The position numbers and the translations under genes are program-made. Positions 345 through 64,000 of a stretch of 64,000 bases of DNA are shown here, piece by piece; the first letter of the stretch is position 1; every line of letters begins with the position of its first letter. The notes below the pieces were generated by a model that was given only the letters and a program-made list of their open reading frames with translations, had not been told where the DNA came from and did not search any database. The DNA is from Candidatus Levyibacteriota bacterium (GTDB lineage: Bacteria; Patescibacteriota; Microgenomatia; Levybacterales; UBA12049), in assembly GCA_016186625.1 (NCBI GenBank), contig JACPLG010000008.1, positions 80,689 to 144,688 on the forward strand, written 5' to 3'.

Positions 345-2411
345 TTATTTTACTCTTGCGTTAAACTTTGAGGAAATTGCACTGATTACTTGTTCTCTAA
401 TTTCTGAAACTTCTTTGCTTGTTAAATTTCTATCTTCAGCTTGATAAATAATGTGAAAAGTTCTGGCATTTTCAAACTGGTCCTTAAGCTTCACTTCTCT
501 TATCAAAAAACTCTGAAGAGATATCTCCTCAATAACATCTTGAGTTGAAACTGCCTCATCCAAAACAAAAGTAATATCCTCAAAAACTGCCGGAAATTTT
601 GCCAGAGGTTTGTAAACTTTTTTATTGGTTGCGTTTTTAAGCAAGATTTCAAAGTTAATTTCAAAATCTATGAGATTGCTATTTAGAATTTCAATATATC
701 CGACATTTTCGTTTTCAATTGAGATTTCTGCTCCTCCTTCTACTCTATTTTTAACTTTGTAATTTTTTATCTCCAAATCGTCAAATAGGGCTTCGATTAG
801 TCCTTTTACTTCAAAGAAAGAGACTCCCGTTTTTTTAATAAGTCCGGCAAGAGTTAACTTTTCTTTAGGCAGGTTTTGCCCTGAGCCGATTCGGTCTGAG
901 CGGGTTCGACGTCCTGAGCTCACCGTCGAAGGACTCACGGTCGAATGACTTGTCGAACGGGCTTTTTGACTTTTATGATAGGTATTGGCAAGTTCAAAGA
1001 TTTTGATAATTTCTTTTGCCTTATTGTTCTCAGCTACCTCGAGAAGGCTTGGAACAAGAGTATTTCGAAGATATACCATATCCGAAGTTAATGGATTTTT
1101 AAGCTTAATGGCATTATTAATTGGACCGTCAAATAAATCCTCAGAAACCAGGGAATATGTGTAAACCTCAGTGTATCCCCAGTATTTAAGTGCGCTTTTA
1201 ATTCTATCTTCCCAGTAGAAATTGTTGGCATATGGAATCGTTTTGTCACTTAAGAAAGATGGGATAATACTTGGTATCCTATGGTACCCATAAATTCTTG
1301 CTATTTCTTCAATGATGTCTTCTTCTATTTTTATATCATTAATCCGTTCTGATGGAACCTCAACCTTAAAAAAACCTAAATGAGCGCTGACTTTAAAACC
1401 AAGTTTTTGAAGAATTTCAGTTGCGATATTTGGATTTATCCCAACTCCAATTATCTTGTTAATCTTCTCAAGAGAAACCTTTACAGTTTGAGTTTTTGGT
1501 TTGTTAGGATAAACATCCAGGATTTTTGAGACAACTTTTCCCTGTGCAATTTGCTGATAAAGTTCAATTCCTCTTTTTAGCGCAAGTTCCATAAACTCCG
1601 GATCCACTCCCTTTTCGTTAACAATGGCCGCTTCAGTTCTAATTCCAAGACTCATTGAAGTTTGTCTGATACGATCGGGATTATTATTATCAAGAAAAAA
1701 TAGTATTCTTTTGGTTTTTTCATTAACAACAGAATTTGCTGTTCCCATAATTCCCAAAAGGTCGATTATTTCCCCTTCCCCATTGTCAGCAACTATATCT
1801 CCACCCAGTAATCGATACTCTTTCCCATCCAAAGTTGTAATAATTTCTCCTTTTTTTGACCCTCTTATTATCATCTCTTTAGTGTTTAATAAATCGTAGT
1901 CAAACACATGAGCGGGGTGGCCAATTTCGCGCATTACATAATTTGTGACATCAACCAGATTATTAAGACTTCTTATTCCGGAAAGTTCCAGACGATTGGC
2001 AATTTCTTTTGGGCTTTTGCCAATATTAACTTCCAAGACCACAGCCATAATTCTATTTACCAGTTTTGGGTCATTTTTGATTTCAATCGGGAAAGAAATA
2101 TCTCCTTCCGCAACTTTTGGTGTTTTTGGCGGAATGTATTTTGCCGCAATTCCATTCCCTGAAAGTGAAGCCGTTGCCTCTTTTGCAATTCCTGCAACAG
2201 ACATTAAATCCGGCCTGTTGGTTGTAACCTCGATATCATAAGTGTAATCATCTCCAGCTTTCCCGCCTGCAACGCCTGCGCTAGCATAGCGGGCAGGTTC
2301 TGTCTGCCCTACCGAAACAGAAGTCAGGGAAAGTTGCCGGGCAATTTCTGAGGCACTTGCTTTTGTTTCCAAAAATTCTCTTAACCAAGAGTCAACGATT
2401 TTTATTTGCAT
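345..2411 (-). CDS. pheT: Phenylalanine--tRNA ligase beta subunit
   Basis: 688 aa; N-terminal MQIKIVDSWLREFLE..., B3/B4 and B5-like regions, C-terminal FDX-ACB-like domain. Directly downstream of pheS on the same strand. ATG start at 2409-2411. Confidence 0.9.
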   Translation of the reverse strand: MQIKIVDSWLREFLETKASASEIARQLSLTSVSVGQTEPARYASAGVAGGKAGDDYTYDIEVTTNRPDLMSVAGIAKEATASLSGNGIAAKYIPPKTPKVAEGDISFPIEIKNDPKLVNRIMAVVLEVNIGKSPKEIANRLELSGIRSLNNLVDVTNYVMREIGHPAHVFDYDLLNTKEMIIRGSKKGEIITTLDGKEYRLLGGDIVADNGEGEIIDLLGIMGTANSVVNEKTKRILFFLDNNNPDRIRQTSMSLGIRTEAAIVNEKGVDPEFMELALKRGIELYQQIAQGKVVSKILDVYPNKPKTQTVKVSLEKINKIIGVGINPNIATEILQKLGFKVSAHLGFFKVEVPSERINDIKIEEDIIEEIARIYGYHRIPSIIPSFLSDKTIPYANNFYWEDRIKSALKYWGYTEVYTYSLVSEDLFDGPINNAIKLKNPLTSDMVYLRNTLVPSLLEVAENNKAKEIIKIFELANTYHKSQKARSTSHSTVSPSTVSSGRRTRSDRIGSGQNLPKEKLTLAGLIKKTGVSFFEVKGLIEALFDDLEIKNYKVKNRVEGGAEISIENENVGYIEILNSNLIDFEINFEILLKNATNKKVYKPLAKFPAVFEDITFVLDEAVSTQDVIEEISLQSFLIREVKLKDQFENARTFHIIYQAEDRNLTSKEVSEIREQVISAISSKFNARVK
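895..962. repeat. MITE-like TCGAA/CCTGAG-rich repeat inserted in-frame in pheT
   Basis: gttcgacgtcctgagctcaccgtcgaaggactcacggtcgaatgacttgtcgaacggg shares GTCGAATGACTTGTCGAA with the element at 32565-32596. Translated as the low-complexity peptide ARSTSHSTVSPSTVSSGRRTRSDRIGSGQ in a PheT linker. Confidence 0.45.
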
Positions 2412-2475
2412 ACGCTCATGTCATTCTGAGGCTTGCCGAAGAATCTTAAGATCCTTCACTTCGTTCAGGATGACA
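2412..2475. repeat. Related short palindromic repeat in the pheS-pheT spacer
   Basis: atgtcattctgagg...cttcacttcgttcaggatgacat; inverted repeat; shares the CACTTCGTTC motif with the element next to tRNA-His. Confidence 0.3.
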
Positions 2476-3510
2476 TTAAAATTGCTCGAGAAATTCTAAT
2501 TTATTTGAATAGAGTAAGCGCAAATCATCAATTTCGATCCCTTCTTTCATCATTAGAACTCGCTCAACCCCCCAACCGAATGCGAATCCGTTGTGTTTTT
2601 CCGGATCAATCTTGCAGTTTCTTAGAACTTGAGGATGAACCATCCCCGCTCCTCCCAATTCAAGCCAGCCTTCTTTGCAGAGCTTACAGCCCCGGCCTAA
2701 ACAAACACCGCATGTTACATCCACTTCAAAAGATGGTTCGGTAAACTCAAAATGATAAGGTCTTATTCTTGATTTTCGTTCTTCTCCAAAATATGTTTTA
2801 ACAAAATATTCTAGTACTCCCTTAAGGTTTGAGATCGATAAACTAGTATTAACAGCTAATCCTTCAAACTGGTGAAACATTGGGGTATGCGAAACATCAG
2901 ACTGTCTCCTGTAACACCTAGCGATATTTAGCATTTTAATAGGAAGCTTTCCTTTTTCCATCTCTCTAATTTGACCATTTGATGTGTGTGGAGTTAAAAG
3001 CATTGGCCCATATTTTGGATGAGGGGGTGCATCTATGAAAAAGGTTTCCCAGTCATCCCTAGCAGGATGATTTTCCGAAAAGTTGAGAGCTCCGAAGGGG
3101 TACCAGTCCCATTCCACTTCAGGATAGCGGACTCGCCCAAATCCTATTTTTTCAAAAATTGATGTTATTTCCCAAATTGCCTGAGTGATGAGATGTAAGT
3201 GTCCAAGGGGAGGCCTTATTCCCGGGTCGGTTACATCAATTTTTTTGATTCTTTTCCCTAATTCTTGATTCTTAATTCTTACTTCTTGTTCGATAATGGC
3301 ACTTTCAATTGATTCCTTAACTTCATTTGCTAAGATTCCCACCTCTCTTCTTTTCTCAGGATTTATTTTTGGAAGGCGTTTTATAACAAGAGTTAACTGG
3401 CCGCTTTTTCCCAAAAATTGCAGTTTAATATGTTCAAGTTCGTCCGGGTCCTTAGCGTCCAAAATAAGTGACACCGCATTATTTTTGATATTGATGAGTT
3501 CATTTTCCAT
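2476..3510 (-). CDS. pheS: Phenylalanine--tRNA ligase alpha subunit
   Basis: 344 aa; class II aaRS motifs (FRPSYFPFTEPS-like EFTEPSFEVDV, GWAFGLGLERL-like GFAFGWGVERV). ATG start. Confidence 0.9.
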   Translation of the reverse strand: MENELINIKNNAVSLILDAKDPDELEHIKLQFLGKSGQLTLVIKRLPKINPEKRREVGILANEVKESIESAIIEQEVRIKNQELGKRIKKIDVTDPGIRPPLGHLHLITQAIWEITSIFEKIGFGRVRYPEVEWDWYPFGALNFSENHPARDDWETFFIDAPPHPKYGPMLLTPHTSNGQIREMEKGKLPIKMLNIARCYRRQSDVSHTPMFHQFEGLAVNTSLSISNLKGVLEYFVKTYFGEERKSRIRPYHFEFTEPSFEVDVTCGVCLGRGCKLCKEGWLELGGAGMVHPQVLRNCKIDPEKHNGFAFGWGVERVLMMKEGIEIDDLRLLYSNKLEFLEQF

Positions 3511-3628: not shown

Positions 3629-5860
3629 ATGCCCGATAATCAGGAGCAAATTGTTGTAAAAGAAAAATCAGGATTTATAAGAAGGGTTCTTGGACCAATT
3701 TTATCCCCCTTTGATAAGCTTTTTAGTATGCTTCCCAAGGATAAACGAAAACTAACACTCCTAATTATTACCCTGGCAATTCCCATAACTGTAATAGCTG
3801 CTCTTATTCAGCAGGAGCTAAGGGGAAGAGCTGCTGGAGAAAGACAGCTCATCATGGGAATGTCTAACAGAGGTGGTTATAGTAGTAAGGATGTTAATGT
3901 TCAAGGAATTAAAGAAGCAATAGAAACAATCAGGAGAGAAACAGGACGATATCCTGCCATTTATCCATTATGGGTAAATTTTGAAGAAAGTCCAGGAAGT
4001 GGTGACCCGAGAGCCTCTTTCCCTAGTAAAGAAATTACAGATTATTTAGATGCCAGAGGTATTGCTGTTGCTATTTTTATGCAGCCCGTTGGCCCTGGGA
4101 TTGGCAGAAATGACGGAAGGTTTATTTTCTCCTCTAATACCTCTTCGTCAGTACCAAATGGCCAGATTAAGTTTGATTCTTCAAATCCCTCAAGTATAAC
4201 AAGGATATATGTAAGTAAAACTTCTTCAGGCACTGAAAATCCTGCAGGGCTTGCTAATACCTGGGTTCCTGGCGCAAAGGCTTCTGTGTTCGGCTCTGAT
4301 TCAAGTGGGAATGTAGCCTATACTGATTCAAATTTTTTTGGTTTCACTGTTAACTCTAAGGCAGACAGCGGGACTTTCTGGACGCTCGGAGTAACTGTAA
4401 ATAGAGCTGGTAGTTTGTCCGGTATTTTTTCAAACGGAAGGCCTGTCTTCATTACGATGGCCGATACTTTTGCCAAAAAATACAGCAATCAATCAATCGC
4501 AAACGGATCGTTTGATCCATTTCTGCGGCAACTTGCACAGGCTGCAAGATCGTATGGGAAACCTGTTCTTCTTAGATATGCTCATGAAATGAATGCACAT
4601 TGGTTCCCATGGACAGTTGGACAACCAGACCCAAAAAAAAGTTATGGAAGATACGTGTATTTTAATCAGGGAAATACGCCTTCGAATTATGTAGCAGCAT
4701 GGAGACGTGTTTATACAGTTATAAAATTGGAAGCTCCGAATGTTAAATTATTCTGGGTTCCATCAAGAGTGGCTCCGACAAAACTTGATATATATGATGG
4801 TTTTTACCCCGGGAATAACTACGTTGATTATGTAGGGTTTGATGCTTATAGCGGTCTAGGCGGAAATAACCCTAAGAACTATATTTCTATGTATGACTCC
4901 TACAAAAGAGTTATGGAAAAGGTACTACAGCTTTCAAATAACAGAAAACCTGTTTTTATAGGTGAAACTGGAGTCAATTCTATAAATGTACCAAGCGGTT
5001 TTAGTAGAGCGGATTGGGTGAGGCGAGGATATAATGATGCATATAACGCATGGCCCAAGCTCGCAGGAATTATTTATTTCAACTTTGATATGAGAGATAC
5101 TGAGAACAATAACTGGTTATTATCTGCTTCTCCCGAAGCGTTGTCAGCATATAGAGATATAGCTTCAAGAGCCAAGTTTCAGGGTAAATTTGAGGAAGGA
5201 TCCACACCAACACCAACCCCAGTCCTTCCAACAGTTCCGCCAATTATAGTATCGCCTACCCCATCCCTAGGTATTTCAGCCTTCATAGAGTCAGGTGGAA
5301 GTGTGGTTATGGAAGCTGAGAATAATGACAAAAGATTTAATAGAGGCAATTATAGGTGGGCAGGTGCGGCACCGGATACTCCACTCACAGCAACCTCTGG
5401 ATATGTGAACGAAGGAACTAGAAAAGGATACACAGCAGTAAGACCAAATGATGATAAAGTAACTTATTTTGAAGGAGGATATAAAAAGGGTCCTGAAGTG
5501 GTGTATAACATTAATTTCTCTTCAACTGGAACATATTATGTTTACATGAGAAGCTCAGGTCCTGATAGCAAATCAGACTCAGCTCACTATGGTCTTGATG
5601 GCGCCTATGATGGCACTATAGCCTTATATTATAGAGGGGAGGGGGGTGCTTCAACTAATTGGCAGTGGAAAGGAAATAATAATGATGGAACAAAAGCTAG
5701 AATTAGAGTTACTACTCCTGGAATTCATACGTTCCATATATACATGCGAGAAGACGGGACACAAATCGATAGAATTCGACTTTTTAAAAATTCTTCCTGG
5801 ACTCCATCACCAGGTCCTGCTGCAGATGGTCCTTCAGAAAGTCTAAGAGGGAAATTCTAG
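3629..5860 (+). CDS. Membrane-anchored glycoside hydrolase family 26-like protein with PT-linker and C-terminal beta-sandwich (CBM-like) domain
   Basis: N-terminal TM helix; LLRYAHEMNAHWFPW matches the GH26 acid/base signature (AHEMN..W..W); FIGETGVNS matches the nucleophile GE.G region; TPTPTPVLPTVPP linker. Confidence 0.55.
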   Translation: MPDNQEQIVVKEKSGFIRRVLGPILSPFDKLFSMLPKDKRKLTLLIITLAIPITVIAALIQQELRGRAAGERQLIMGMSNRGGYSSKDVNVQGIKEAIETIRRETGRYPAIYPLWVNFEESPGSGDPRASFPSKEITDYLDARGIAVAIFMQPVGPGIGRNDGRFIFSSNTSSSVPNGQIKFDSSNPSSITRIYVSKTSSGTENPAGLANTWVPGAKASVFGSDSSGNVAYTDSNFFGFTVNSKADSGTFWTLGVTVNRAGSLSGIFSNGRPVFITMADTFAKKYSNQSIANGSFDPFLRQLAQAARSYGKPVLLRYAHEMNAHWFPWTVGQPDPKKSYGRYVYFNQGNTPSNYVAAWRRVYTVIKLEAPNVKLFWVPSRVAPTKLDIYDGFYPGNNYVDYVGFDAYSGLGGNNPKNYISMYDSYKRVMEKVLQLSNNRKPVFIGETGVNSINVPSGFSRADWVRRGYNDAYNAWPKLAGIIYFNFDMRDTENNNWLLSASPEALSAYRDIASRAKFQGKFEEGSTPTPTPVLPTVPPIIVSPTPSLGISAFIESGGSVVMEAENNDKRFNRGNYRWAGAAPDTPLTATSGYVNEGTRKGYTAVRPNDDKVTYFEGGYKKGPEVVYNINFSSTGTYYVYMRSSGPDSKSDSAHYGLDGAYDGTIALYYRGEGGASTNWQWKGNNNDGTKARIRVTTPGIHTFHIYMREDGTQIDRIRLFKNSSWTPSPGPAADGPSESLRGKF

Positions 5861-9433: not shown

Positions 9434-9526
9434 AGGGTAAAGAAGAAATATACCGCTGTAACCCTATTCACTAAAATTATAATAGCAAACATCAAAATAA
9501 ATCGCAAGTGACTATCTTACACTTTA

Positions 9527-9551
9527 CCTTCCCACTTTCCATGTGGGAAGG
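9527..9551. repeat. REP-1 copy (CCTTCCCACTTTCCATGTGGGAAGG)
   Basis: Perfect hairpin palindrome; same family flanks RAYT at 31129-31776. Confidence 0.7.
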
Positions 9552-9558
9552 TAGATAC

Positions 9559-13277: not shown

Positions 13278-13317
13278 GCTTTAAGTTTAGCAGATTTTTA
13301 TCAGGCAATTCATTCGG

Positions 13318-13362
13318 TTTACACCCCGGGTGTGGATTTAAGTTTACACCCTAGGATTTGTG
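13318..13362. repeat. REP-2 copy (TTTACACCCCGGGTGTGGATTTAAGTTTACACCCTAGGA)
   Basis: Two-part repeat identical in structure to copies at 52316 and 52824. Confidence 0.65.
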
Positions 13363-13363
13363 T

Positions 13364-13434
13364 GGACCCGAGAGGTATCGAACCTCTGGCCTCTTCGATG
13401 TCAACGAAGCGCTCTACCACTGAGCTACGAGTCC
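13364..13434 (-). tRNA. tRNA-Val (anticodon GAC)
   Basis: Minus-strand sequence GGACTCGTAGCTCAGTGGTAGAGCGCTTCGTTGACATCGAAG...GGTTCGATACCTCTCGGGTCCA folds as a cloverleaf; anticodon loop TTGACAT. Confidence 0.8.
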
Positions 13435-18645: not shown

Positions 18646-18653
18646 TGATTTTG

Positions 18654-18677
18654 CCTTCCCACATGGAATGTGGGAAT
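18654..18677. repeat. REP-1 copy (CCTTCCCACATGGAATGTGGGAA)
   Basis: Palindromic hairpin of the REP-1 family. Confidence 0.65.
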
Positions 18678-18703
18678 TCGGATTGAGCTGTTTATTCCCC
18701 TTC

Positions 18704-19651: not shown

Positions 19652-19777
19652 TCGCCACATGGGACAAACCTCACGGTTTTTCCCAACCTGCCCGCTAATG
19701 CTGCGCATAAGCGTTGCAGGCGGGCGATTTCCCTTTAGGGACCACAAAATCAGCACTCCCAATCCAACGATTTTGTG
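19652..19777 (-). repeat. Conserved tRNA-upstream element (copy 3, with a ~37-nt hairpin insertion)
   Basis: Minus strand: CACAAAATCGTTGGATTGGGAGTGCTGATTTTGTG...CCTAAAGGGAAATCG[insertion]GTTGGGAAAAACCGTGAGGTTTGTCCCATG; matches 20942-21023 and 34643-34730. Confidence 0.5.
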
Positions 19778-19815
19778 TCTTTTATTCTATCAAGATTAGG
19801 TTTAATTTGGAAGTG

Positions 19816-20941: not shown

Positions 20942-21023
20942 GCGAAATCGTTGGATTGAGAGTGTCGATTTCGCTACCCCTAAAGGGAAATCGTTGGGAA
21001 AAACCGCGAGGTTTGTCCCATTT
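20942..21023 (+). repeat. Conserved tRNA-upstream element (copy 1): two hairpins directly 5' of tRNA-Phe
   Basis: GCGAAATCG-TTGGATTGAGAGTGT-CGATTTCGC ... GGGAAAAACCGCGAGGTTTGTCCC. Confidence 0.5.
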
Positions 21024-21096
21024 AGCCGAGTTAGCCAAGTTGGTCAAGGCATCCGCCTGAAGAGCGGACTATCTCAGTTCGATTCTGAGACTCGGC
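21024..21096 (+). tRNA. tRNA-Phe (anticodon GAA)
   Basis: GCCGAGTTAGCCAAGTTGGTCAAGGCATCCGCCTGAAGAGCGGACTATCTCAGTTCGATTCTGAGACTCGGCA. Confidence 0.8.
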
Positions 21097-22127: not shown

Positions 22128-22262
22128 TTTCAATGGGGTCGGATTTGGGATTTTGGGAAATCGAAACCACCCCCGAAACCACCCCGGGGGTGGAATTAGG
22201 TTTACACCCTAGGAATTTTCTATAGATTTTTCCTCAATGGGGTCGGATTTGGGGTTTTGGCG
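22128..22262. repeat. REP-2 copy (22176-22218) flanked by ~30-bp direct repeats CAATGGGGTCGGATTTGGGRTTTTGG
   Basis: The second direct repeat encodes the MFS C-terminus (QNPKSDPIEEKSIE); the first is a duplicate downstream of the stop codon. Confidence 0.5.
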
Positions 22263-29057: not shown

Positions 29058-30032
29058 TCACTTACTTTTTCCTAAAATCAAAGCAAGGAGTGCCATTCGG
29101 ATATACATACCGTTTCTAATTTCCGAGCGAAGGTACACCGCATTTGGATTTTTATCAACTTCCGGAAGTATTTCGCCAACGCGGGGCAAAGGGTGCATAA
29201 AAATCGTGTTTTTACCAGCCCTCTCTTTTATAAGTTTGTTATCAAGTACAAAGCGATTTTTTACCTTTTCATACGCGCTTTCGGACTTAAACCTTTCTTT
29301 TTGAACTCTTGTCCAATACCAAAAATCCGCATTTTTTGGAATATCTTTCTCCGATTCAATTTCTACCAACTCTAGCTTCCCACTTTCCATGTGGGAACTC
29401 AGATCTTCCCTGCTTAATCGAAGCTCTTTTGGGGAAAGAAGATAAAGTTTATTACCATTGAACTTTGAGAGACCCCGGATTAATGAATGGATTGTTCTTC
29501 CATTTAACATATCTCCTGCCAAAACTCCTATTAAATTATCTAGTTTTTTTGTTCGCTCATAAATTGTATAAAGGTCAAGCAAAGCTTGTGTGGGGTGTTC
29601 TCCGATTCCGTCACCTGCATTGATAACAGGAACAAACCCAGCTGCCTGGGCTGCCTTAAGCGTCGCTCCTTTCTTTGGATGCCTGAGGACAATTACATCA
29701 CAGTAAGCCTCAAAAACCCTGATCGTATCCTCAAGACTTTCCCCCTTTGAAACCGATGAAAAATGTTCTGGATCAAGAATTTCAACAGTTGAGCCTCCAA
29801 GTTGTTTTACTGCTGCGACAAATGATCCGAAGGTTCTACTTGACGGTTCATAAAAAATAAGGGTAACAATGTTACCCTTAAGAAGATCCGAAGGTCTTGC
29901 GTTTTTGGCAATTAGAAGCATGCCCACGGTTTTCTTAAAAAGAATAGATATGTCCTTAGGGGAAAATTGATCCAGAGAAATAATATCTTTACCTTTGTAT
30001 TTACCATTTATGGGCTCAATCGGACTGACCAT
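29058..30032 (-). CDS. pyrB: Aspartate carbamoyltransferase catalytic subunit
   Basis: FYEPSSRTFGSF (STRTR-type motif), MHPLPRVGEI (HPLPR, ATCase-type rather than OTCase HCLP); adjacent to carAB. Confidence 0.8.
   Translation of the reverse strand: MVSPIEPINGKYKGKDIISLDQFSPKDISILFKKTVGMLLIAKNARPSDLLKGNIVTLIFYEPSSRTFGSFVAAVKQLGGSTVEILDPEHFSSVSKGESLEDTIRVFEAYCDVIVLRHPKKGATLKAAQAAGFVPVINAGDGIGEHPTQALLDLYTIYERTKKLDNLIGVLAGDMLNGRTIHSLIRGLSKFNGNKLYLLSPKELRLSREDLSSHMESGKLELVEIESEKDIPKNADFWYWTRVQKERFKSESAYEKVKNRFVLDNKLIKERAGKNTIFMHPLPRVGEILPEVDKNPNAVYLRSEIRNGMYIRMALLALILGKSK
29376..29397. repeat. REP-1 copy lying in-frame inside pyrB (encodes ...SSHMESGK...)
   Basis: CTTCCCACTTTCCATGTGGGAA within the pyrB ORF. 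Confidence 0.6.
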
Positions 30033-30139: not shown

Positions 30140-31093
30140 GTGAAGAAACACTTCGTTTTCTTTGTTTGCATACTGATAATAGCAGGGAGCGGTTTTGGTC
30201 TTTTTGTGTATCACCAAAAATCACTAGCCAGAAATATTTACTCCCCTCTTCCGGACTCATTGAACAAAAAGGAAAATCCAGAGGTTATGAGTCTTGATTT
30301 TTGGCTGCCGAGTCTGTTTGGTTTTTTTGACAGCGATGATGTCCCCGCGCTTAGTGCAAAATCGGTGTTGGTTTATGATCTTTCGGAAGAAAAGACAATT
30401 TATGAGAAAAATTCCAAAGATCGGCTTCCTATGGCATCTCTCACTAAAATTATGACTGCAATGGTGGCAATTGACCACAAAAGAGAGGATGATCGCTATA
30501 CTATATCTTCAGAGGATCTGGTTGGAGAAAATACAATCGGACTCTCGGCTGGAGAATCAATGAGTTTGGAAGAGCTTCTTTATGGTATTTTTATGTATTC
30601 TGCAAATGAAGCCGCTGAGGCACTTGCATCTAATACTTTAGGCCGCGAAAGTTTTATCAAGGCCATGAATGACAAGGCAAAAGCGCTCGGCCTTGAAAAC
30701 ACAAATTTCACCAACCCAACGGGTTTTGAAGGCGATGGAGACCAATATACTACAGCTTATGACTTACTCGTACTCTCGCGATATGCTGTCACAAACTATC
30801 CTCAAATCATAAAAGCATCAAGCACTGAGAAAATTTTTATTCCGCAAACAGAAGATCACTATGCATATGATATGTATAACCAGACAAATTTAATAACTTC
30901 CTATCCCGGTGTAAAAGGTTTAAAAGATGGATATACTCCCGAAGCAGGGCTTTGTCTGGTTACATATCTTGATTACGGCGGACATAAAATTATAGGAATT
31001 ATTCTGGGAAGTGAAAACAGAAGGCAGGAAATGAAGTCGTTGCTTGATTATTCTCTCCGCCAACAAGGCATCGAACCCCCACCCCACAGCTAA
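30140..31093 (+). CDS. D-alanyl-D-alanine carboxypeptidase (peptidase S11, PBP5-like)
   Basis: SLTK (SxxK), SANE (SxN), KDGYT (KTG-like); N-terminal TM anchor. Confidence 0.8.
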   Translation: MKKHFVFFVCILIIAGSGFGLFVYHQKSLARNIYSPLPDSLNKKENPEVMSLDFWLPSLFGFFDSDDVPALSAKSVLVYDLSEEKTIYEKNSKDRLPMASLTKIMTAMVAIDHKREDDRYTISSEDLVGENTIGLSAGESMSLEELLYGIFMYSANEAAEALASNTLGRESFIKAMNDKAKALGLENTNFTNPTGFEGDGDQYTTAYDLLVLSRYAVTNYPQIIKASSTEKIFIPQTEDHYAYDMYNQTNLITSYPGVKGLKDGYTPEAGLCLVTYLDYGGHKIIGIILGSENRRQEMKSLLDYSLRQQGIEPPPHS

Positions 31094-31097
31094 TGTA

Positions 31098-31120
31098 CCT
31101 TCCCACATGGAAAGTGGGAA
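31098..31120. repeat. REP-1 copy flanking RAYT-1
   Basis: CCTTCCCACATGGAAAGTGGGAA. Confidence 0.7.
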
Positions 31121-31128
31121 CACAGAAT

Positions 31129-31776
31129 TCAGTCATCGATGTCGATTAGAGAATCAAAAAGCGCCGGGTCAATATCATTAGTTTCCTCGACAAAACTTTG
31201 ATAGTCTCTTTCTGGATTCGATCGCGCAAAATAAGAAAGAATAAAACCTGTATCACAAAAAACATGTTTTTCCCCATAAATATAGTTACAATAAGACGAA
31301 TATGGGTAAACTCTACATTCACACATGGAAAGTGGGAAAGGGTTTCGGTGAATATATTTTGACAGTTGCAGAAGATGCCCATCGCTTTCAATATACTTTG
31401 CTTTAAAACTTCCTTGAAACAGTGGTCCTACTCTATCGTACTTAGTATTGAAATACCTTGTATAACTGTCTGATAATTTTCTTAGAAAGTGTGTAATGCC
31501 ATTATCGGTTAATTGTTTGACTAGGAGATGAAAATGGTTAGGCATCAAGCAAAAACAAAAAATACTTACTAGTTCTGTTTGGCTGTCTACTTTCTTAAGT
31601 TTAACGATTCCCCTTCTGTAGTCAGATAGTTTCATGGGCTGAGGAGATTTTCGATAAAAGTCCAGAGTTTCTAAAAATCTAAGATAGTCCCACCTATCCA
31701 AAAAGATATCTCTTTTTTCCACACCTCTATTATAAATGTGGAAGAATCCGTCGGTGATAAAAGGAGGATTCTTCAT
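31129..31776 (-). CDS. REP-associated tyrosine transposase (RAYT; IS200/IS605 TnpA-like HUH Y1 transposase), family 1
   Basis: HIYNRGV, MPNHFHLLV (HUH), YIHRNP (catalytic Tyr); flanked by REP-1 copies on both sides. Confidence 0.8.
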   Translation of the reverse strand: MKNPPFITDGFFHIYNRGVEKRDIFLDRWDYLRFLETLDFYRKSPQPMKLSDYRRGIVKLKKVDSQTELVSIFCFCLMPNHFHLLVKQLTDNGITHFLRKLSDSYTRYFNTKYDRVGPLFQGSFKAKYIESDGHLLQLSKYIHRNPFPLSMCECRVYPYSSYCNYIYGEKHVFCDTGFILSYFARSNPERDYQSFVEETNDIDPALFDSLIDIDD

Positions 31777-31806
31777 AAGCGTAATATATTAATTTAACCA
31801 TAAGTA

Positions 31807-31831
31807 CCTTCCCACATGTCAAGTGGGAAGG
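31807..31831. repeat. REP-1 copy flanking RAYT-1
   Basis: CCTTCCCACATGTCAAGTGGGAAGG. Confidence 0.7.
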
Positions 31832-31896
31832 TAAACTTTCCCTCTGGAGCTTGGGTTTGATATGCGCTTCTTATCCTTGTATAATATTAGCTACGC

Positions 31897-32411: not shown

Positions 32412-32466
32412 AATTAATCCGCAATATAAATCATCTATAGCTATAAGTCAAGAAAGCAGAATCTGA

Positions 32467-32598
32467 GCGGGTGAAGGGAATCCCATTCGACTTCGCTCAG
32501 GGTAAACTTCTCATCCCTTCACGCTGGATTCCACCAGCCCACCGCGAATGGTGAGCAATTCGTCATGAGCTCATTGTCGAATGACTTGTCGAATCCAG
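32467..32598. repeat. MITE-like element at the tRNA-Gly 3' end, bounded by a partial duplicate of the tRNA 3' end (GAGCGGGTGAAGGGAATCCC)
   Basis: Intact tRNA 3' AGAGCGGGTGAAGGGAATCGAACCC at 32598-32621 and partial copy at 32467-32488; between them ATTCGAC...GTCGAATGACTTGTCGAA. Confidence 0.5.
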
Positions 32599-32669
32599 AG
32601 CGGGTGAAGGGAATCGAACCCTCGTATCCACTTTGGAAAAGTGGTGTTCTGCCATTGAACTACACCCGC
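32599..32669 (-). tRNA. tRNA-Gly (anticodon TCC)
   Basis: GCGGGTGTAGTTCAATGGCAGAACACCACTTTTCCAAAGTGGATACGAGGGTTCGATTCCCTTCACCCGCT. Confidence 0.8.
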
Positions 32670-32862
32670 GCGCGAAGCGTGGGACGAAACCAAGGGTTTC
32701 TTCCCAACGATCTTCCTTTAAGGATGCACGAGGCCGGTAAAATCATCAAGCGAGCGGCCCTGACGTGCAATATCTAGCGTTTTGCGTAATCTTAATTCTA
32801 TCAAACTTGAGTGGTTATATTCAATTATTTCACGGCGCGGAGGACGAAAGCGCGGTTGATTA

Positions 32863-34566: not shown

Positions 34567-34642
34567 TGCTTCAATTATAGCATATTTTGTTTGATTTTGA
34601 GCGGATTTCGAGGTAAAATAGTATGGTAACCTTTTAGATTAA

Positions 34643-34730
34643 CGCAAAATCGCTGGATTGGGAGTGTCGGTTTTGCGAATCAATAAAGGGAAAATCGTTG
34701 GGAAAAAACCGTTAGGTTTTGTCCCATTTA
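34643..34730 (+). repeat. Conserved tRNA-upstream element (copy 2)
   Basis: CGCAAAATCG-CTGGATTGGGAGTGT-CGGTTTTGCG ... GGGAAAAAACCGTTAGGTTTTGTCCC; stem changes relative to copy 1 are compensatory. Confidence 0.5.
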
Positions 34731-34772
34731 GGCCCTGTAGCTCAACGGATAGACCTGCCCGCTAAGCAGCAT
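34731..34772 (+). pseudogene. tRNA 5'-fragment (acceptor + D-arm + degenerate anticodon arm)
   Basis: GGCCCTGTAGCTCAACGGATAGACCTGCCCGCTAAGCAGCATG; no T-arm. Confidence 0.35.
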
Positions 34773-34845
34773 GCGCCCGTAGCTCAACGGATAGAGCAAG
34801 ACGGTTCTAACGTCAAGGTTGGGGGTTCGATTCCCTCCGGGCGTG
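34773..34845 (+). tRNA. tRNA-Arg (anticodon TCT)
   Basis: GCGCCCGTAGCTCAACGGATAGAGCAAGACGGTTCTAACGTCAAGGTTGGGGGTTCGATTCCCTCCGGGCGTG. Confidence 0.75.
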
Positions 34846-34855
34846 CAAGTATGGT

Positions 34856-34911
34856 AGGCAGGGCGAGTGCGTTCTAAGCACCAGGTTGGGGGTTCGATTC
34901 CCTGCCTGCCG
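34856..34911 (+). pseudogene. D-arm-less partial tRNA-Arg(TCT) copy
   Basis: GGCAGGG-CGAGTGCGTTCTAAGCAC-CAGGTTGGGGGTTCGATTCCCTGCCTGCC; same anticodon loop GTTCTAA as the neighbouring tRNA. Confidence 0.4.
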
Positions 34912-35072
34912 GCAGGCAGGCCTCCGGGGTCGCACTTCGGCATCAGTCCGGCAAACTCATGACAAGAGCTCAGTGCAAGCTGAGTTTGACGAAGCGACCT
35001 GAGGGATGAGAAGTTTACCCTGAGTACTTCGGTTTACTCAGCATAAACGAAGTCGAAGGGATTCCCTCCAGG
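34912..35072. repeat. MITE-like repeat with partial tRNA 3' duplicate (GATTCCCTCCAGGGTC)
   Basis: cgaagtcgaagggattccctccagggtc; CCTGAG and TCGAA motifs as in the other copies. Confidence 0.35.
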
Positions 35073-35073
35073 G

Positions 35074-35541
35074 TCACAGATGTCTTCCCCTGAGGTAAGC
35101 TTCGGCAGCCTCTCTCATTGAGTGTTCAGGGAATTCTCCTGTACGATTATGCGCAAACCGTTGATAAATACTGCCACGTAAAAGCTCGAGTTTTTCGGTT
35201 GTTAAAAATCTGAAGTCATTTGCTAAAGCAAATCCCTCTCCAACAACTTCTATTACTTTTTCCATAGGTACATCGTGAGACGCCCGAACATTATCTGGAT
35301 GAATTCTATCAGCCACAGATTTAATTGCTTGCAGCTTTGATTGATCTTCCAATAAAGCTTCTCGTAACTCTAAAGGATTTTCACCAGTTTCTCTGACTAT
35401 AAGGGCTATAACTGCTCCTTGCGCAGTAACGGAAGCAGGACAAGCCATGCTAGCTCTAATGAAATAAAAATAGGCTATTTCCGCCATACTCCTTGGGAAG
35501 CCTTCACTCATGTCAGTTTGCGCAGTTTCAGCTGTACTCAC
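35074..35541 (-). CDS. Hypothetical protein
   Basis: 155 aa, GC-richer; no motif. Confidence 0.35.
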   Translation of the reverse strand: MSTAETAQTDMSEGFPRSMAEIAYFYFIRASMACPASVTAQGAVIALIVRETGENPLELREALLEDQSKLQAIKSVADRIHPDNVRASHDVPMEKVIEVVGEGFALANDFRFLTTEKLELLRGSIYQRFAHNRTGEFPEHSMREAAEAYLRGRHL

Positions 35542-37847: not shown

Positions 37848-37903
37848 TTTACACCTTTACACCCCGGGTGTGGATTTACCTTGACACCCCAGGGATTTAG
37901 ATT
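37848..37903. repeat. REP-2 copy flanking RAYT-2
   Basis: CTTTACACCTTTACACCCCGGGTGTGGATTTACCTTGACACCCCAGGGA. Confidence 0.65.
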
Positions 37904-37917
37904 TAAAGTTAGTTTAT

Positions 37918-38580: not shown

Positions 38581-38587
38581 TTTACCT

Positions 38588-38630
38588 AATATCCTAGGGT
38601 GTAAACCTAAATTCACCCCCGGGGTGTATG
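38588..38630. repeat. REP-2 copy (inverted orientation) flanking RAYT-2
   Basis: CTAGGGTGTAAACCTAAATTCACCCCCGGGGTGTA. Confidence 0.65.
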
Positions 38631-38682
38631 CGGGACGATATTTGCTTGATTTGGGGTTCAGTTAGTTTTAAGATTGTAGTCA

Positions 38683-39392: not shown

Positions 39393-39467
39393 GGTGGATG
39401 TAGCTCAGTGGTAGAGCTCCTGGTTGTGGTCCAGGTGGCCGCGGGTTCGATCCCCGTCATCCACCCA
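39393..39467 (+). tRNA. tRNA-His (anticodon GTG) with G(-1)
   Basis: gGTGGATGTAGCTCAGTGGTAGAGCTCCTGGTTGTGGTCCAGGTGGCCGCGGGTTCGATCCCCGTCATCCACCCA. Confidence 0.8.
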
Positions 39468-39898
39468 TTCGACTCACTTCGTTCGCTCATGGCTGTAAGC
39501 CGGAGTCGAATGTCCTGAGTTCATCGAAGGACAAAATGTCTTTTTTCATTTACATTCTCCGTAGCTCATCCAATCAACTATATATTGGACAAACGAATAA
39601 TTTTGAAAATCGGACAAAGCAACATATTGCAAAAGATTGTAAAGCAGCGAAATTTACTAAAGATCATGAAGACTTCAAGCCCGTTTATAAAGAGGAGTAC
39701 CCTACAAGATTAGAAGCAATGAGAAGAGAAGCACAGATTAAAAAATGGTCAAGAGCAAAAAAAGAAGCGCTTATTGCAGGAAATTTGAAAGAACTTAAAA
39801 ATTTAAGCAAAAAGAAATAGTAAGTGAGATCATCGAGCCTGAGCCTGAGGTTCACTTCAGAGTCGAAGACCTGTCGAACCATCCCCGTCATCCACCCA
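39468..39898 (+). mobile_element. Minimal tRNA-integrated cassette: GIY-YIG nuclease gene bounded by a 16-bp direct repeat of the tRNA-His 3' end and ATTCGAC.../...GTCGAACC termini
   Basis: CCCCGTCATCCACCCA at 39453-39468 and again at 39883-39898; left end ATTCGACTCACTTCGTTCGCTCA, right end GAGTCGAAGACCTGTCGAACCAT. Confidence 0.55.
39536..39820 (+). CDS. GIY-YIG nuclease-domain protein (UPF0213/YhbQ-like)
   Basis: FFIYILRSSSNQLYIGQTNNFENRTKQH matches the GIY-YIG core. Confidence 0.7.
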   Translation: MSFFIYILRSSSNQLYIGQTNNFENRTKQHIAKDCKAAKFTKDHEDFKPVYKEEYPTRLEAMRREAQIKKWSRAKKEALIAGNLKELKNLSKKK

Positions 39899-52177: not shown

Positions 52178-52315
52178 AACTTTATTATAGACTTATTTAA
52201 CAAGAAAAGTTGGAGGAAAAAGTATGTCAGGGGTAATTATAGCAGAAGATACCATATTTTAAGAACAAGAAAATCCTTAAGATTACATCCAAGCGTAAAT
52301 TCAAGCTTACACAGT

Positions 52316-52358
52316 TTACACCCCGGGGGTGGATTTAGCTTTACACCCCAGGATTTAA
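52316..52358. repeat. REP-2 copy upstream of C39-like gene
   Basis: TTTACACCCCGGGGGTGGATTTAGCTTTACACCCCAGGA. Confidence 0.65.
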
Positions 52359-52404
52359 TTTAAGTGCGCAAGGCACTTGTTAATAAAATTATAAATTCTA
52401 CAAT

Positions 52405-52806: not shown

Positions 52807-52823
52807 AATTTCCGCTCCTAGGT

Positions 52824-52866
52824 TTACACCCCGGGTGTGGATTTAGCTTTACACCCCAGGAGTTTG
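52824..52866. repeat. REP-2 copy downstream of C39-like gene
   Basis: TTTACACCCCGGGTGTGGATTTAGCTTTACACCCCAGGA. Confidence 0.65.
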
Positions 52867-52893
52867 TTAGAGTTGTTGAGAGTTGTTGGATCA

Positions 52894-58200: not shown

Positions 58201-58216
58201 TTTTGGCTTAAAGTAG

Positions 58217-58239
58217 CTTCCCACATGGAAAGTGGGAAG
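58217..58239. repeat. REP-1 copy
   Basis: CTTCCCACATGGAAAGTGGGAAG perfect palindrome. Confidence 0.7.
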
Positions 58240-58253
58240 CAAGTTCTTATTAT

Positions 58254-63390: not shown

Positions 63391-63396
63391 AATGCG

Positions 63397-63438
63397 TGCA
63401 CCCGTAGCTCAATGGATAGAGCACATCGCTTCGGATCA
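63397..63438 (+). pseudogene. tRNA-Arg(TCG) 5'-fragment (acceptor + D-arm + anticodon loop CTTCGGA, no T-arm)
   Basis: GCACCCGTAGCTCAATGGATAGAGCACATCGCTTCGGATCAC; no matching 3' half downstream. Confidence 0.4.
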
Positions 63439-63478
63439 CAAATTGATTTCAAAGCACAAATAACTTATAATTTGAGCT

Positions 63479-63916
63479 ATGAAGAGATGTAGTAGGTGTA
63501 AAAAAGAAAAGTCTATTGAAGATTTTAATTTTAAAAATAGAGCTAAGCAGACTCGGCAATATCAGTGCAAAGATTGCAGCCGAATATATATAAGGTCACA
63601 TTATGAAAGAAACAAGAAGTACTATCTTTTAAAAGCAAAGCTCAGAAATGAAGCAAACAGAAAGGAAATCAAAGCATATATATGGAATTTTCTCAATAGT
63701 AATCCATGCGTAGACTGTGGGGAGAAAGATCCGATAGTTTTAGAATTCGATCACTTATCGGACAAGATAGCAGATATCTCCGCAATGTACAGAAATTATA
63801 ATTTGCAAAAAGTTAAAAGTGAAATTGAAAAGTGTCAGGTCAGATGCGCAAATTGTCATAGAAGAAAAACGGCAAATGAGCAGGGATGGAATAAAAATTT
63901 TGCCTCTGTAGCTTAA
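63479..63916 (+). CDS. HNH endonuclease with N-terminal CxxC...CxxC zinc finger
   Basis: CVDCGEKDPIVLEFDHLSDK...CQVRCANCHRRKT (HNH). The 3' end overlaps the tRNA-Arg 5' end by ~15 nt. Confidence 0.7.
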   Translation: MKRCSRCKKEKSIEDFNFKNRAKQTRQYQCKDCSRIYIRSHYERNKKYYLLKAKLRNEANRKEIKAYIWNFLNSNPCVDCGEKDPIVLEFDHLSDKIADISAMYRNYNLQKVKSEIEKCQVRCANCHRRKTANEQGWNKNFASVA

Positions 63917-63973
63917 CGGATAAAGCGCTGGTCTTCGGAACCAGTAATGCGGGTTCGATTCCTGCCAGGGGCG
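63902..63973 (+). tRNA. tRNA-Arg (anticodon TCG)
   Basis: GCCTCTGTAGCTTAACGGATAAAGCGCTGGTCTTCGGAACCAGTAATGCGGGTTCGATTCCTGCCAGGGGCG. Confidence 0.75.
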
Positions 63974-64000
63974 CAACGTATTGCTGCAAGGTAGCACGTT

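Follow-up and report, generated by a model that had tools for sequence, protein, structure and literature searches.

The gene pheT, encoding the beta subunit of phenylalanyl-tRNA synthetase (PheRS), occupies positions 345-2411 of the minus strand, with pheS at 2476-3510, in a 64-kb stretch of a Candidatus Levyibacteriota contig (JACPLG010000008.1; the whole stretch analyzed is hereafter called the window), and its 688-aa open reading frame (ORF) contains at codons 484-512 an in-frame segment of 87 nt (876-962, minus strand) that is read as the peptide ARSTSHSTVSPSTVSSGRRTRSDRIGSGQ. Comparison with homologous genes supports the view that this segment, here termed the site B insert, is dispersed-repeat DNA that was inserted, in frame and in a lineage-specific manner, into a single essential gene. 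We consider it likely that pheT acquired a fragment or derivative of a dispersed repeat element and kept it, the insert being in frame, stop-free, hydrophilic and located at the permissive tip of a beta-hairpin, that two 15-nt duplications expanded it, and that it is translated with neutral or nearly neutral consequences. A sequence-only reading of the window had noticed a TCGAA/CTGAG-rich segment in frame at this place, which is indeed present, and had given it about 66 bp (895-962); as the peptide requires 87 nt, the extent is 876-962 instead.

The evidence for an insertion comes from the 120 closest PheT homologs (53-71% identity), most of which have 645-648 aa as compared to the 688 aa of the window protein, itself a 100% match to an NCBI Candidatus Levybacteria PheT. 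Site B was empty in 115 of the 120, including P0002, the sister of the window PheT (82% bootstrap) in a neighbor-joining tree from which only sister pairs were used because its deep nodes were weak. The empty site joins ...GGGGAT directly to CTTCCG... in P0002 and ...AAAGAT to TTACC... in P0003 and P0004. With the junctions set at codon level against the empty sites of loci L002, L004 and L006, conserved PheT sequence resumes precisely on either side of the 29 codons, and the predicted junction peptides are ...SQKAR, STVSPSTVSSGR and IGSGQNLPK. The sequence-only reading had expected extra residues in PheT and had named an ancestral linker, to be recognized by aligning orthologs, as the outcome that would overturn an insertion; the 29 residues lack a counterpart in the homologs with an empty site, alignments to solved structures break there, and the ancestral linker was rejected, since the orthologs do not share the insert.

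The composition of the insert sets it apart from the gene in which it lies. Its GC content is 0.61, while other 87-nt segments of pheT average 0.35 (sd 0.048, maximum 0.48; z = 5.4), and only 0.4% of the 87-nt segments across the 64 kb reach such a value. Three of its six frames are open, the gene frame being without a stop, and Ser, Thr, Arg and Gly abound in the encoded peptide. On the coding strand the insert can be written as GCCCG-TTCGACAAGTCA-TTCGACCGTGAGTCC-TTCGACGGTGAGCTCAGGACG-TCGAACCCGCTCAGAC-CGAATCGGCTCAGGGCAA, that is, about five tandem TTCGAC-N-GCTCAG modules in a single orientation, and it includes two in-frame 15-nt tandem duplications. The first (CTGAGCCGATTCG at 881-893 and CTGAGCGGGTTCG at 896-908) was found by repeat search at a spacing of 15, and the second (CTCACCGTCGAAGGA at 919-933 and CTCACGGTCGAATGA at 934-948) by repeat search and by TRF (period 15, 2.1 copies, 88% matches). 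These duplications suggest that slippage enlarged an initial piece of about 57 nt.

The relationship to dispersed repeats is most direct with an element at a tRNA gene of the same window, as the sequence-only reading had recognized. The 18-mer GTCGAATGACTTGTCGAA, which constitutes the first 18 nt past the junction GCCCG on the coding strand, occurs exactly twice in the window, at 940-957 (plus strand) and at 32576-32593, and two matches were obtained in none of 100 shuffles. The second copy falls in an ORF-less element of 115 nt (32483-32597, minus strand; left end TTCGACAAGTCATTCGAC..., right end CCCTGAGCGAAGTCGAATGG) that adjoins, on the 3' side, its target gene tRNA-Gly(tcc) (32598-32669, minus strand; ARAGORN and Rfam). 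At either boundary of the element stand the same 18 nt of the tRNA 3' end (32465-32482 and 32598-32615), and in tRNA orientation the element opens with TTCGACAAGTCATTCGACAATGAGCTCATGACG. The first 48 nt of the site B insert align to the left terminus of this element with 30 of 33 positions identical plus one 15-nt indel, which corresponds to the second tandem duplication (919-948), so that removing one copy yields the 30/33 match; blastn aligned the two over 43 nt (77%, E 6e-4). The tRNA-Gly element folds well (-41.4 kcal/mol, z -3.2), and inside it the tRNA end recurs in inverted form (AGCGTGAAGGGAT). Besides this copy, modules in the window also flank a cassette encoding a GIY-YIG nuclease domain, described below. 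Sharing both building blocks and one terminus, the site B insert is therefore tied to elements found at duplicated tRNA ends.

The modules are not confined to this genome. The canonical 17-mer unit TTCGACAAGCTCAGGAC was found at no fewer than 120 loci in species-representative genomes of many phyla, among the matches listed Sphingomonadales, Dehalococcoidia, Anaerolineae, Bacteroidota, Gallionella, Methylococcales, Verrucomicrobia, Planctomycetota, Levyibacteriota and others, and its flanks are non-random, with a preceding CC in 115 of 128 and T or C at position -3 in 121 of these listed matches. It is also present in 83 viral contig stretches (CC prefix in 71/87). The resulting cross-phylum consensus, TCC-TTCGAC-..-AGCTCAGGAC-G, is matched by the modules at site B. 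In low-GC genomes 19 of 25 unit copies are intergenic and a few lie inside long ORFs; in another Candidatus Levyibacteriota contig (L076, JACPDD010000010.1, 320-375) a PfkB-family kinase ORF contains a module in frame, read IRSTSSGQ and flanked by a 14-nt direct duplication (AAATATCAAATATC), which constitutes a second coding insertion in Levyibacteriota. Full-text literature searches with the repeat sequence returned only unrelated primers or one plant paper, and no description of the module family.

These relationships bear on whether the extra residues could derive from ordinary evolution of the loop, through local duplication or slippage of pheT itself and with no imported repeat. The two tandem duplications do show that slippage acted at site B, and the residues of the loop are variable and of slightly different length among homologs. 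Nevertheless, the GC content of the insert is foreign to pheT, an exact 18-mer and a 30/33 match to the terminus of an element would be hard to reach locally, the modules conform to a consensus shared across phyla, and independent relatives carry canonical units at the same spot (e.g., CTTTCGACAAGCTCAGGACAA in P0008). We regard a purely local origin as very improbable.

The sequence-only reading had placed the insert in a catalytic-core linker, which does not agree with the domain structure of the protein. Pfam recognized B3_4, B5, tRNA_synthFbeta and FDX-ACB domains in PheT, and residues 484-512 fall within the third of these (PF17759, 398-573), the catalytic-like module (CLM), which corresponds to B6/B7 and in the beta subunit is inactive; the catalytic core lies in PheS. 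In the AlphaFold model (mean pLDDT, the predicted local distance difference test score, of 75) residues 483-514 form a coil with pLDDT below 50 between the confident strands 469-479 and 516-526, and Foldseek matched the model to PheRS beta chains with E of about 1e-50. In the PheRS of S. haemolyticus (2RHQ_B) the equivalent stretch is the short GNGEGELP between RLYEIGRVFF and VEYLSGIL, while the other PDB alignments end at the insert. The model thus places the insert at a predicted surface position compatible with the fold, in a beta-hairpin loop of the non-catalytic CLM. As a separate observation, the PheT of Levybacteria is short (about 645 aa minus inserts), and the N-terminal B2 module seems to be missing from it, because its alignment to solved PheRS beta chains begins near their residue 150 and Pfam found no tRNA_bind (B2) domain in the window PheT.

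Site B is not the only position of pheT that receives repeats, nor is the window the only genome with an insert there. Site B inserts occur in five of the 120 homologs, belonging to different clades, namely the window and four other Levybacteria lineages with short GC-rich inserts: besides the 87 nt of the window, P0007 has 48 nt (GCCCATTCGG...CAAGCTCAGGAT...TTCAGGACAA) with the same junctions as the window, P0008 has 21 nt with the canonical unit, P0019 has 21 nt with the palindrome CCTGCCTGCCGGCAGGCAGG, and P0073 has 18 nt with that same palindrome. Three unrelated repeat families are represented, with insertion points 1-2 codons apart. At site A the window carries a 36-nt in-frame GC-rich hairpin (2262-2297, minus strand; PARYASAGVAGG, residues 39-50; -15.7 kcal/mol), present in 4/120 homologs and shared with two other assemblies, which is 35/36 identical between the window and P0002 in genes that are 73.5% identical overall; AlphaFold gave residues 42-52 as coil with pLDDT below 50. 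An intergenic relative of this hairpin lies upstream of tRNA-Leu(gag) (19685-19724; blastn 41 nt, 88%, E 5e-6; -19.8 kcal/mol). Site C, near the C-terminus of PheT, holds a 21-nt palindrome (CCTGCCTTGCCGGCAGGCAGG) that is identical at the DNA level in P0003 and P0019, and in five homologs the protein sequence shows a 7-residue segment that is similar to it or decayed. The pheT genes of P0019 and P0017 have 97.2% nucleotide identity, the difference between them is exactly two 21-nt palindromes, for which no target duplication is obvious, and their pheS-pheT spacers measure 99 and 3 nt, respectively, so that the gain or loss of repeats appears to be fast relative to point mutation.

From these presence/absence patterns we infer that the repeats are mobile. 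The course of events at site B may have been the following: a piece of about 57 nt would have entered between codons 483 and 484, slippage would then have enlarged it to 87 nt, and the product would be read as a disordered 29-residue surface loop that leaves the fold undisturbed. The insert probably survived because it is in frame, stop-free, hydrophilic and situated at a beta-hairpin tip of the non-catalytic CLM, which would make it tolerated selfish DNA rather than an adaptation. As the gene is essential, purifying selection would act as a filter that leaves few permissive loops (sites A, B and C), and such a filter would explain why different repeat families accumulate in the same loops.

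A different fate of the insert would be its removal, skipping or exploitation, by RNA or protein splicing, by translational bypass as for the mitochondrial byp elements and T4 gene 60, or as a new functional loop or RNA structure. Byp elements and yeast mitochondrial GC clusters do have the appearance of short GC-rich inserts in AT-rich coding sequence, and the near-perfect conservation of the site A hairpin hints at a constraint on that other insert. The site B insert, on the other hand, is open in frame, so that nothing needs skipping; it is unique to this genome, and there is therefore no sign of selection for it; and it has no significant secondary structure. Rfam searches of the whole window (gathering threshold) and of 800-2550 (E up to 5) returned only tRNAs and two chance matches, none at the insert, and thus no intron or other RNA family, while 29 residues without any Pfam domain are far too few for an intein. 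An intein, a self-splicing intron and a bypass element were accordingly rejected, given the 29 aa, the lack of a Pfam domain or Rfam family and the lack of an in-frame stop. We regard removal, skipping or use of the insert as very improbable.

How such repeats reach new sites may be indicated by a cassette of 413 nt (39468-39880, plus strand) that follows tRNA-His (39394-39466) at its 3' end. The cassette consists of a hairpin leader, a GIY-YIG ORF and a right flank rich in modules, and, as for the tRNA-Gly element, 18 nt of the tRNA 3' end are duplicated at its borders (39450-39467 and 39881-39898). It opens with TTCGACTCAC..., and its structured leader (fold z -3.0), with modules of the form TTCGAC../CCTGAG..TCGAAGG, closes with GTCCTGAGTTCATCGAAGGAC. 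The ORF (39536-39820) encodes 94 aa with a GIY-YIG domain (PF01541, E 2.2e-19), its nearest solved relatives are the UPF0213 proteins 1ZG2 and 1YWL, and its score against the group I intron endonuclease model (23.5) is far under the cut-off of 56. Among 80 metagenomic loci encoding relatives of this ORF, 28 have a same-strand tRNA gene directly upstream, with at least 11 tRNA identities across loci, and a copy of the tRNA tail of at least 10 nt follows the ORF in 8 of these 28 as compared to 0 of 28 control regions. The 120 nt upstream of the ORFs contain 1.50 module hexamers per 100 nt, about six times the 0.24 found distally, and the upstream leaders are structured (mean z -2.1 vs. -0.7). 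The common layout runs from the tRNA end through TTCGAC..GCTCAG and CCTGAGC..GTCGAAGGG to the ORF. In Altererythrobacter fulvus (L032, NZ_JBANRM010000001.1, 4098-4487) a GIY-YIG ORF (4139-4429) is framed by canonical-unit sequence (CCGTTCGTCCTGAGCTTGTCGAAGGACGCGC) in the form of perfect inverted repeats of about 31 nt; the arrangement resembles an autonomous cassette with inverted-repeat flanks (repeat, nuclease ORF, repeat) or else a hairpin repeat whose loop harbors a cassette.

This association of modules and GIY-YIG ORFs is suggestive; it is statistical and not proven to be causal, and cassettes may simply insert into pre-existing repeats. We tentatively propose that TTCGAC-N-GCTCAGG modules are the ends of unrecognized, very small mobile elements, in which cassettes of about 0.4 kb encoding only a UPF0213-type GIY-YIG nuclease of 90-100 aa between hairpin or inverted-repeat modules would insert at tRNA 3' ends with a target duplication of 10-18 nt, and ORF-less copies would have spread across phyla and viral contigs, seeding in-frame insertions in essential genes of bacteria of the candidate phyla radiation (CPR) at identical codons of diverged pheT genes, in a homing-like manner. 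Literature searches combining GIY-YIG with CPR, repeats, MITEs (miniature transposable elements bearing inverted repeats), UPF0213 or COG2827 returned no description of such elements.

Nuclease-driven copying linked to these cassettes, which carry the same modules at tRNA 3' ends, is also the leading candidate for the insertion step at site B, and it might account for the recurrence of inserts by itself if they were placed, or recombined between genomes, at set positions of pheT. Such a homing-like, site-specific spread overlaps with the explanation we prefer as its possible mechanism, and several observations are in its favor: the near identity of the site A inserts in diverged genes, the identical site C palindromes of P0003 and P0019 and their absence from P0017, the site B palindrome common to P0019 and P0073 in spite of their different clades, the common junction sequences of the window and P0007, and the mobile appearance of the cassettes themselves in terms of tRNA adjacency, tail copies, module density, leader structure and the inverted repeats of L032. 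However, the target in pheT does not resemble a tRNA 3' end, and three unrelated families at closely spaced but non-identical points of one loop fit a filter by selection better than a single recognition site. Moreover, a GIY-YIG ORF lies near only a minority of the module copies (among the matches listed, at 3-4 of 120 genome loci and at 1 of 83 viral loci), the strict composite motif CTGAG[CT]-N2-14-[GT]TCGAAG occurs within 80 nt upstream of only 6/80 ORFs, and the cassettes might be the ones that enter existing repeats. The near-identical or identical inserts at sites A and C may reflect recurrent site-specific insertion or homing-like recombination, a constraint on the hairpins, or precise excision in the lineages that lack them. 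Site-specific spread is hence a possibility that we rate as rather doubtful when set against insertion followed by selection for permissive loops.

Some findings weigh against the insertion and tolerance of a dispersed repeat fragment as we propose it. Only one clearly related copy of the site B insert was found within the 64 kb; blastn of the insert against the 80 GIY-YIG loci gave a top score of 24 bits, equal to that of dinucleotide shuffles (mean 23.8), so that the link between insert and cassettes rests on short shared modules; and the neutrality of the loop is assumed. The insert has no terminal inverted repeats, its sole inverted repeat measuring 12 nt at 83% (899-910 and 952-963), it folds no better than shuffled sequences (z -0.76 as RNA, -0.62 as DNA), and its junctions offer at most an imperfect and ambiguous 5-7 nt G[T/G]CAAAA as target duplication. 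Target duplications in related insertions range from none at the 21-nt palindromes to 14 nt in L076 and 18 nt at the tRNA ends. The site B insert is thus neither palindromic nor hairpin-forming, unlike the site A insert and the 21-nt palindromes of the relatives. These features also bear on the name MITE-like that the sequence-only reading had chosen: what holds of it is the lineage-specific, in-frame insertion of a dispersed repeat, together with the small size (87 nt, wholly within the pheT frame) and the lack of a transposase gene of its own, and what does not is the structure, given the missing terminal repeats, the modules running in one direction, the folding equal to shuffles, for which a hairpin or MITE structure was rejected, and the doubtful target duplication. 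By these sequence features the insert is not a member of the MITE class.

The source contig is, in addition, a metagenome assembly, and an assembly error is formally possible, in which reads containing the repeat would have been mis-joined into pheT. The exact protein forms a cluster of one, with no second record, and short GC-rich repeats are a classic cause of mis-assembly. A chance joint would have had to yield exactly 29 codons, open in the gene frame, with conserved PheT resuming at both sides, and independent assemblies from other samples have comparable in-frame inserts at the same loop, while the site A insert recurs in two assemblies besides that of the window. We give an artefact very little credit, and the entry and retention of a dispersed repeat fragment continues to be the explanation that we favor.

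The spacer between pheS and pheT deserves separate consideration, as a hairpin related to the site B insert had been reported from it. A hairpin is indeed present (2412-2475, minus strand; GTCATYCTGA...CGAAG...; -20.1 kcal/mol), but blastn found no significant alignment between it and the insert, and by sequence it is assigned to a different repeat family. A nearly identical 57-nt hairpin is common to the spacers of the window and P0008, and other hairpins occupy the spacer in P0002, P0003, P0004, P0007, P0019 and P0073. The spacer appears as a hot spot for hairpin repeats (window 2412-2475; loci L003, L005 and L127).

Further repeats accompany tRNA genes of the window. Partial copies of tRNA-Arg(tct) (34773-34846) lie on both sides of that gene (of its 5' half at 34727-34765, of its 3' half at 34860-34914), and beside it lies the perfect palindrome CCTGCCTGCCGGCAGGCAGG (34901-34920), the same sequence found at site B in P0019 and P0073; beyond the palindrome, a repeat-rich stretch of 170 nt (region 34727-35085) is a reverse relative of the tRNA-Gly element (74 nt, 73%). 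A partial 5' half of tRNA-Arg is also present at 63394-63432 (82% to the one at 34769), followed by a Cys-rich ORF of 145 aa (63479-63916) in which a C-terminal HNH-like motif was noted by eye, with no match in Pfam or NCBIfam, and which overlaps the start of tRNA-Arg(tcg) (63902-63974); the region 63394-63974 is possibly a further nuclease cassette associated with a tRNA gene. Conserved sequences of 35-50 nt (e.g., AAATCGTTGGATTGGGAGTG..., GTTGGGAAAAACCG...GGTTTGTCCCAT) recur in both orientations beside several tRNA genes (19654-19778, 20945-21026, 32687-32723 and 34642-34718), which they may serve in common as promoter or processing signals, unless they are remnants of elements. Two additional families were observed. 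The dispersed repeat TTTACACCCCGGGTGTGGATTTAGCTTTACACCCCAGGA has at least seven copies in both orientations (291-330, 13317-13368, 22175-22226, 37855-37906, 38582-38634, 52314-52365 and 52822-52873), one of them overlapping the window's first ORF at its end, and the palindromic hairpin TACCTTCCCACATGGAAAGTGGGAAGGTA has seven (9521-9556, 18648-18683, 29369-29404, 31092-31127, 31314-31338, 31801-31836 and 58210-58245), which may be terminators or a further repeat family.

Taken as repeat insertions, these segments would mean that CPR bacteria, with their tiny streamlined genomes, tolerate selfish repeats in a single-copy essential gene of translation, and the repeated insertions at the same surface loops would constitute a natural map of the permissive sites of PheRS. 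Such inserts can also inflate or distort marker-gene alignments built from metagenome-assembled genomes. If the tie between modules and GIY-YIG ORFs were causal, it would give a role to the widespread UPF0213 proteins, whose function is unknown, and would establish minimal mobile elements of a new type.

By analogy, the phenomenon appears closest to the Rickettsia palindromic elements (RPEs), and it also resembles bacterial MITEs inserted in frame and mitochondrial GC clusters. The GC clusters of yeast and other fungal mitochondria and the byp elements are short, GC-rich mobile palindromes of AT-rich genomes that can also lie inside protein genes, but they are organellar. Unlike the byp elements, which are bypassed in translation, the pheT insert is open in frame and presumably translated. 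Repetitive extragenic palindromic (REP) sequences and bacterial interspersed mosaic elements (BIMEs) are short GC-rich hairpin repeats associated with the RAYT (Y1) nuclease, REPs being extragenic by definition. The likeness to the REP/BIME-RAYT system consists in GC-rich hairpin repeats that go with a small single-domain nuclease gene itself flanked by repeats; the differences are a GIY-YIG/UPF0213 fold instead of HUH-Y1, modules that enter coding loops, and an association that is statistical only.

MITEs inserted in genes are described for several bacteria, such as Nezha and other MITEs of cyanobacteria, Correia, ERIC and BOX (PMC10969869). The pheT insert shares with them that it is small, non-autonomous and apparently dispersed, with some in-frame fusions (PMC10969869), and the GIY-YIG cassette, which carries the same modules, may be its ORF-carrying relative. 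It differs in having neither terminal inverted repeats nor a clear target-site duplication, in that the candidate partner is a GIY-YIG nuclease and not an established transposase, and in that such duplications as were seen in related insertions are long, at 14-18 nt, and leave the tRNA 3' end restored. The cassettes in turn recall the GIY-YIG homing endonucleases (the seg genes of T4, I-TevI; PMC2988022), where a nuclease ORF sits in a small cassette of patchy distribution, at the same site in diverged hosts and with the target restored, whereas the cassette ORF has only 94 aa, no DNA-binding extension and a UPF0213-like affiliation, and its product is not known to cleave DNA.

With RPEs (Ogata et al. 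2000, 2002, as summarized in PMC10969869) the pheT inserts have in common that short dispersed repeats lie in frame in housekeeping genes of a small-genome bacterium, that they are translated, in pheT presumably, as an extra peptide at positions compatible with the fold, and that a transposase is not known. RPEs are palindromes of about 100-150 bp known from Rickettsia only, the pheT inserts measuring 18-87 nt in a CPR host. Unlike the palindromic RPEs, moreover, the site B insert is a tandem array of half-modules in one orientation, and its module family spans many phyla and is associated with tRNA ends and GIY-YIG ORFs.

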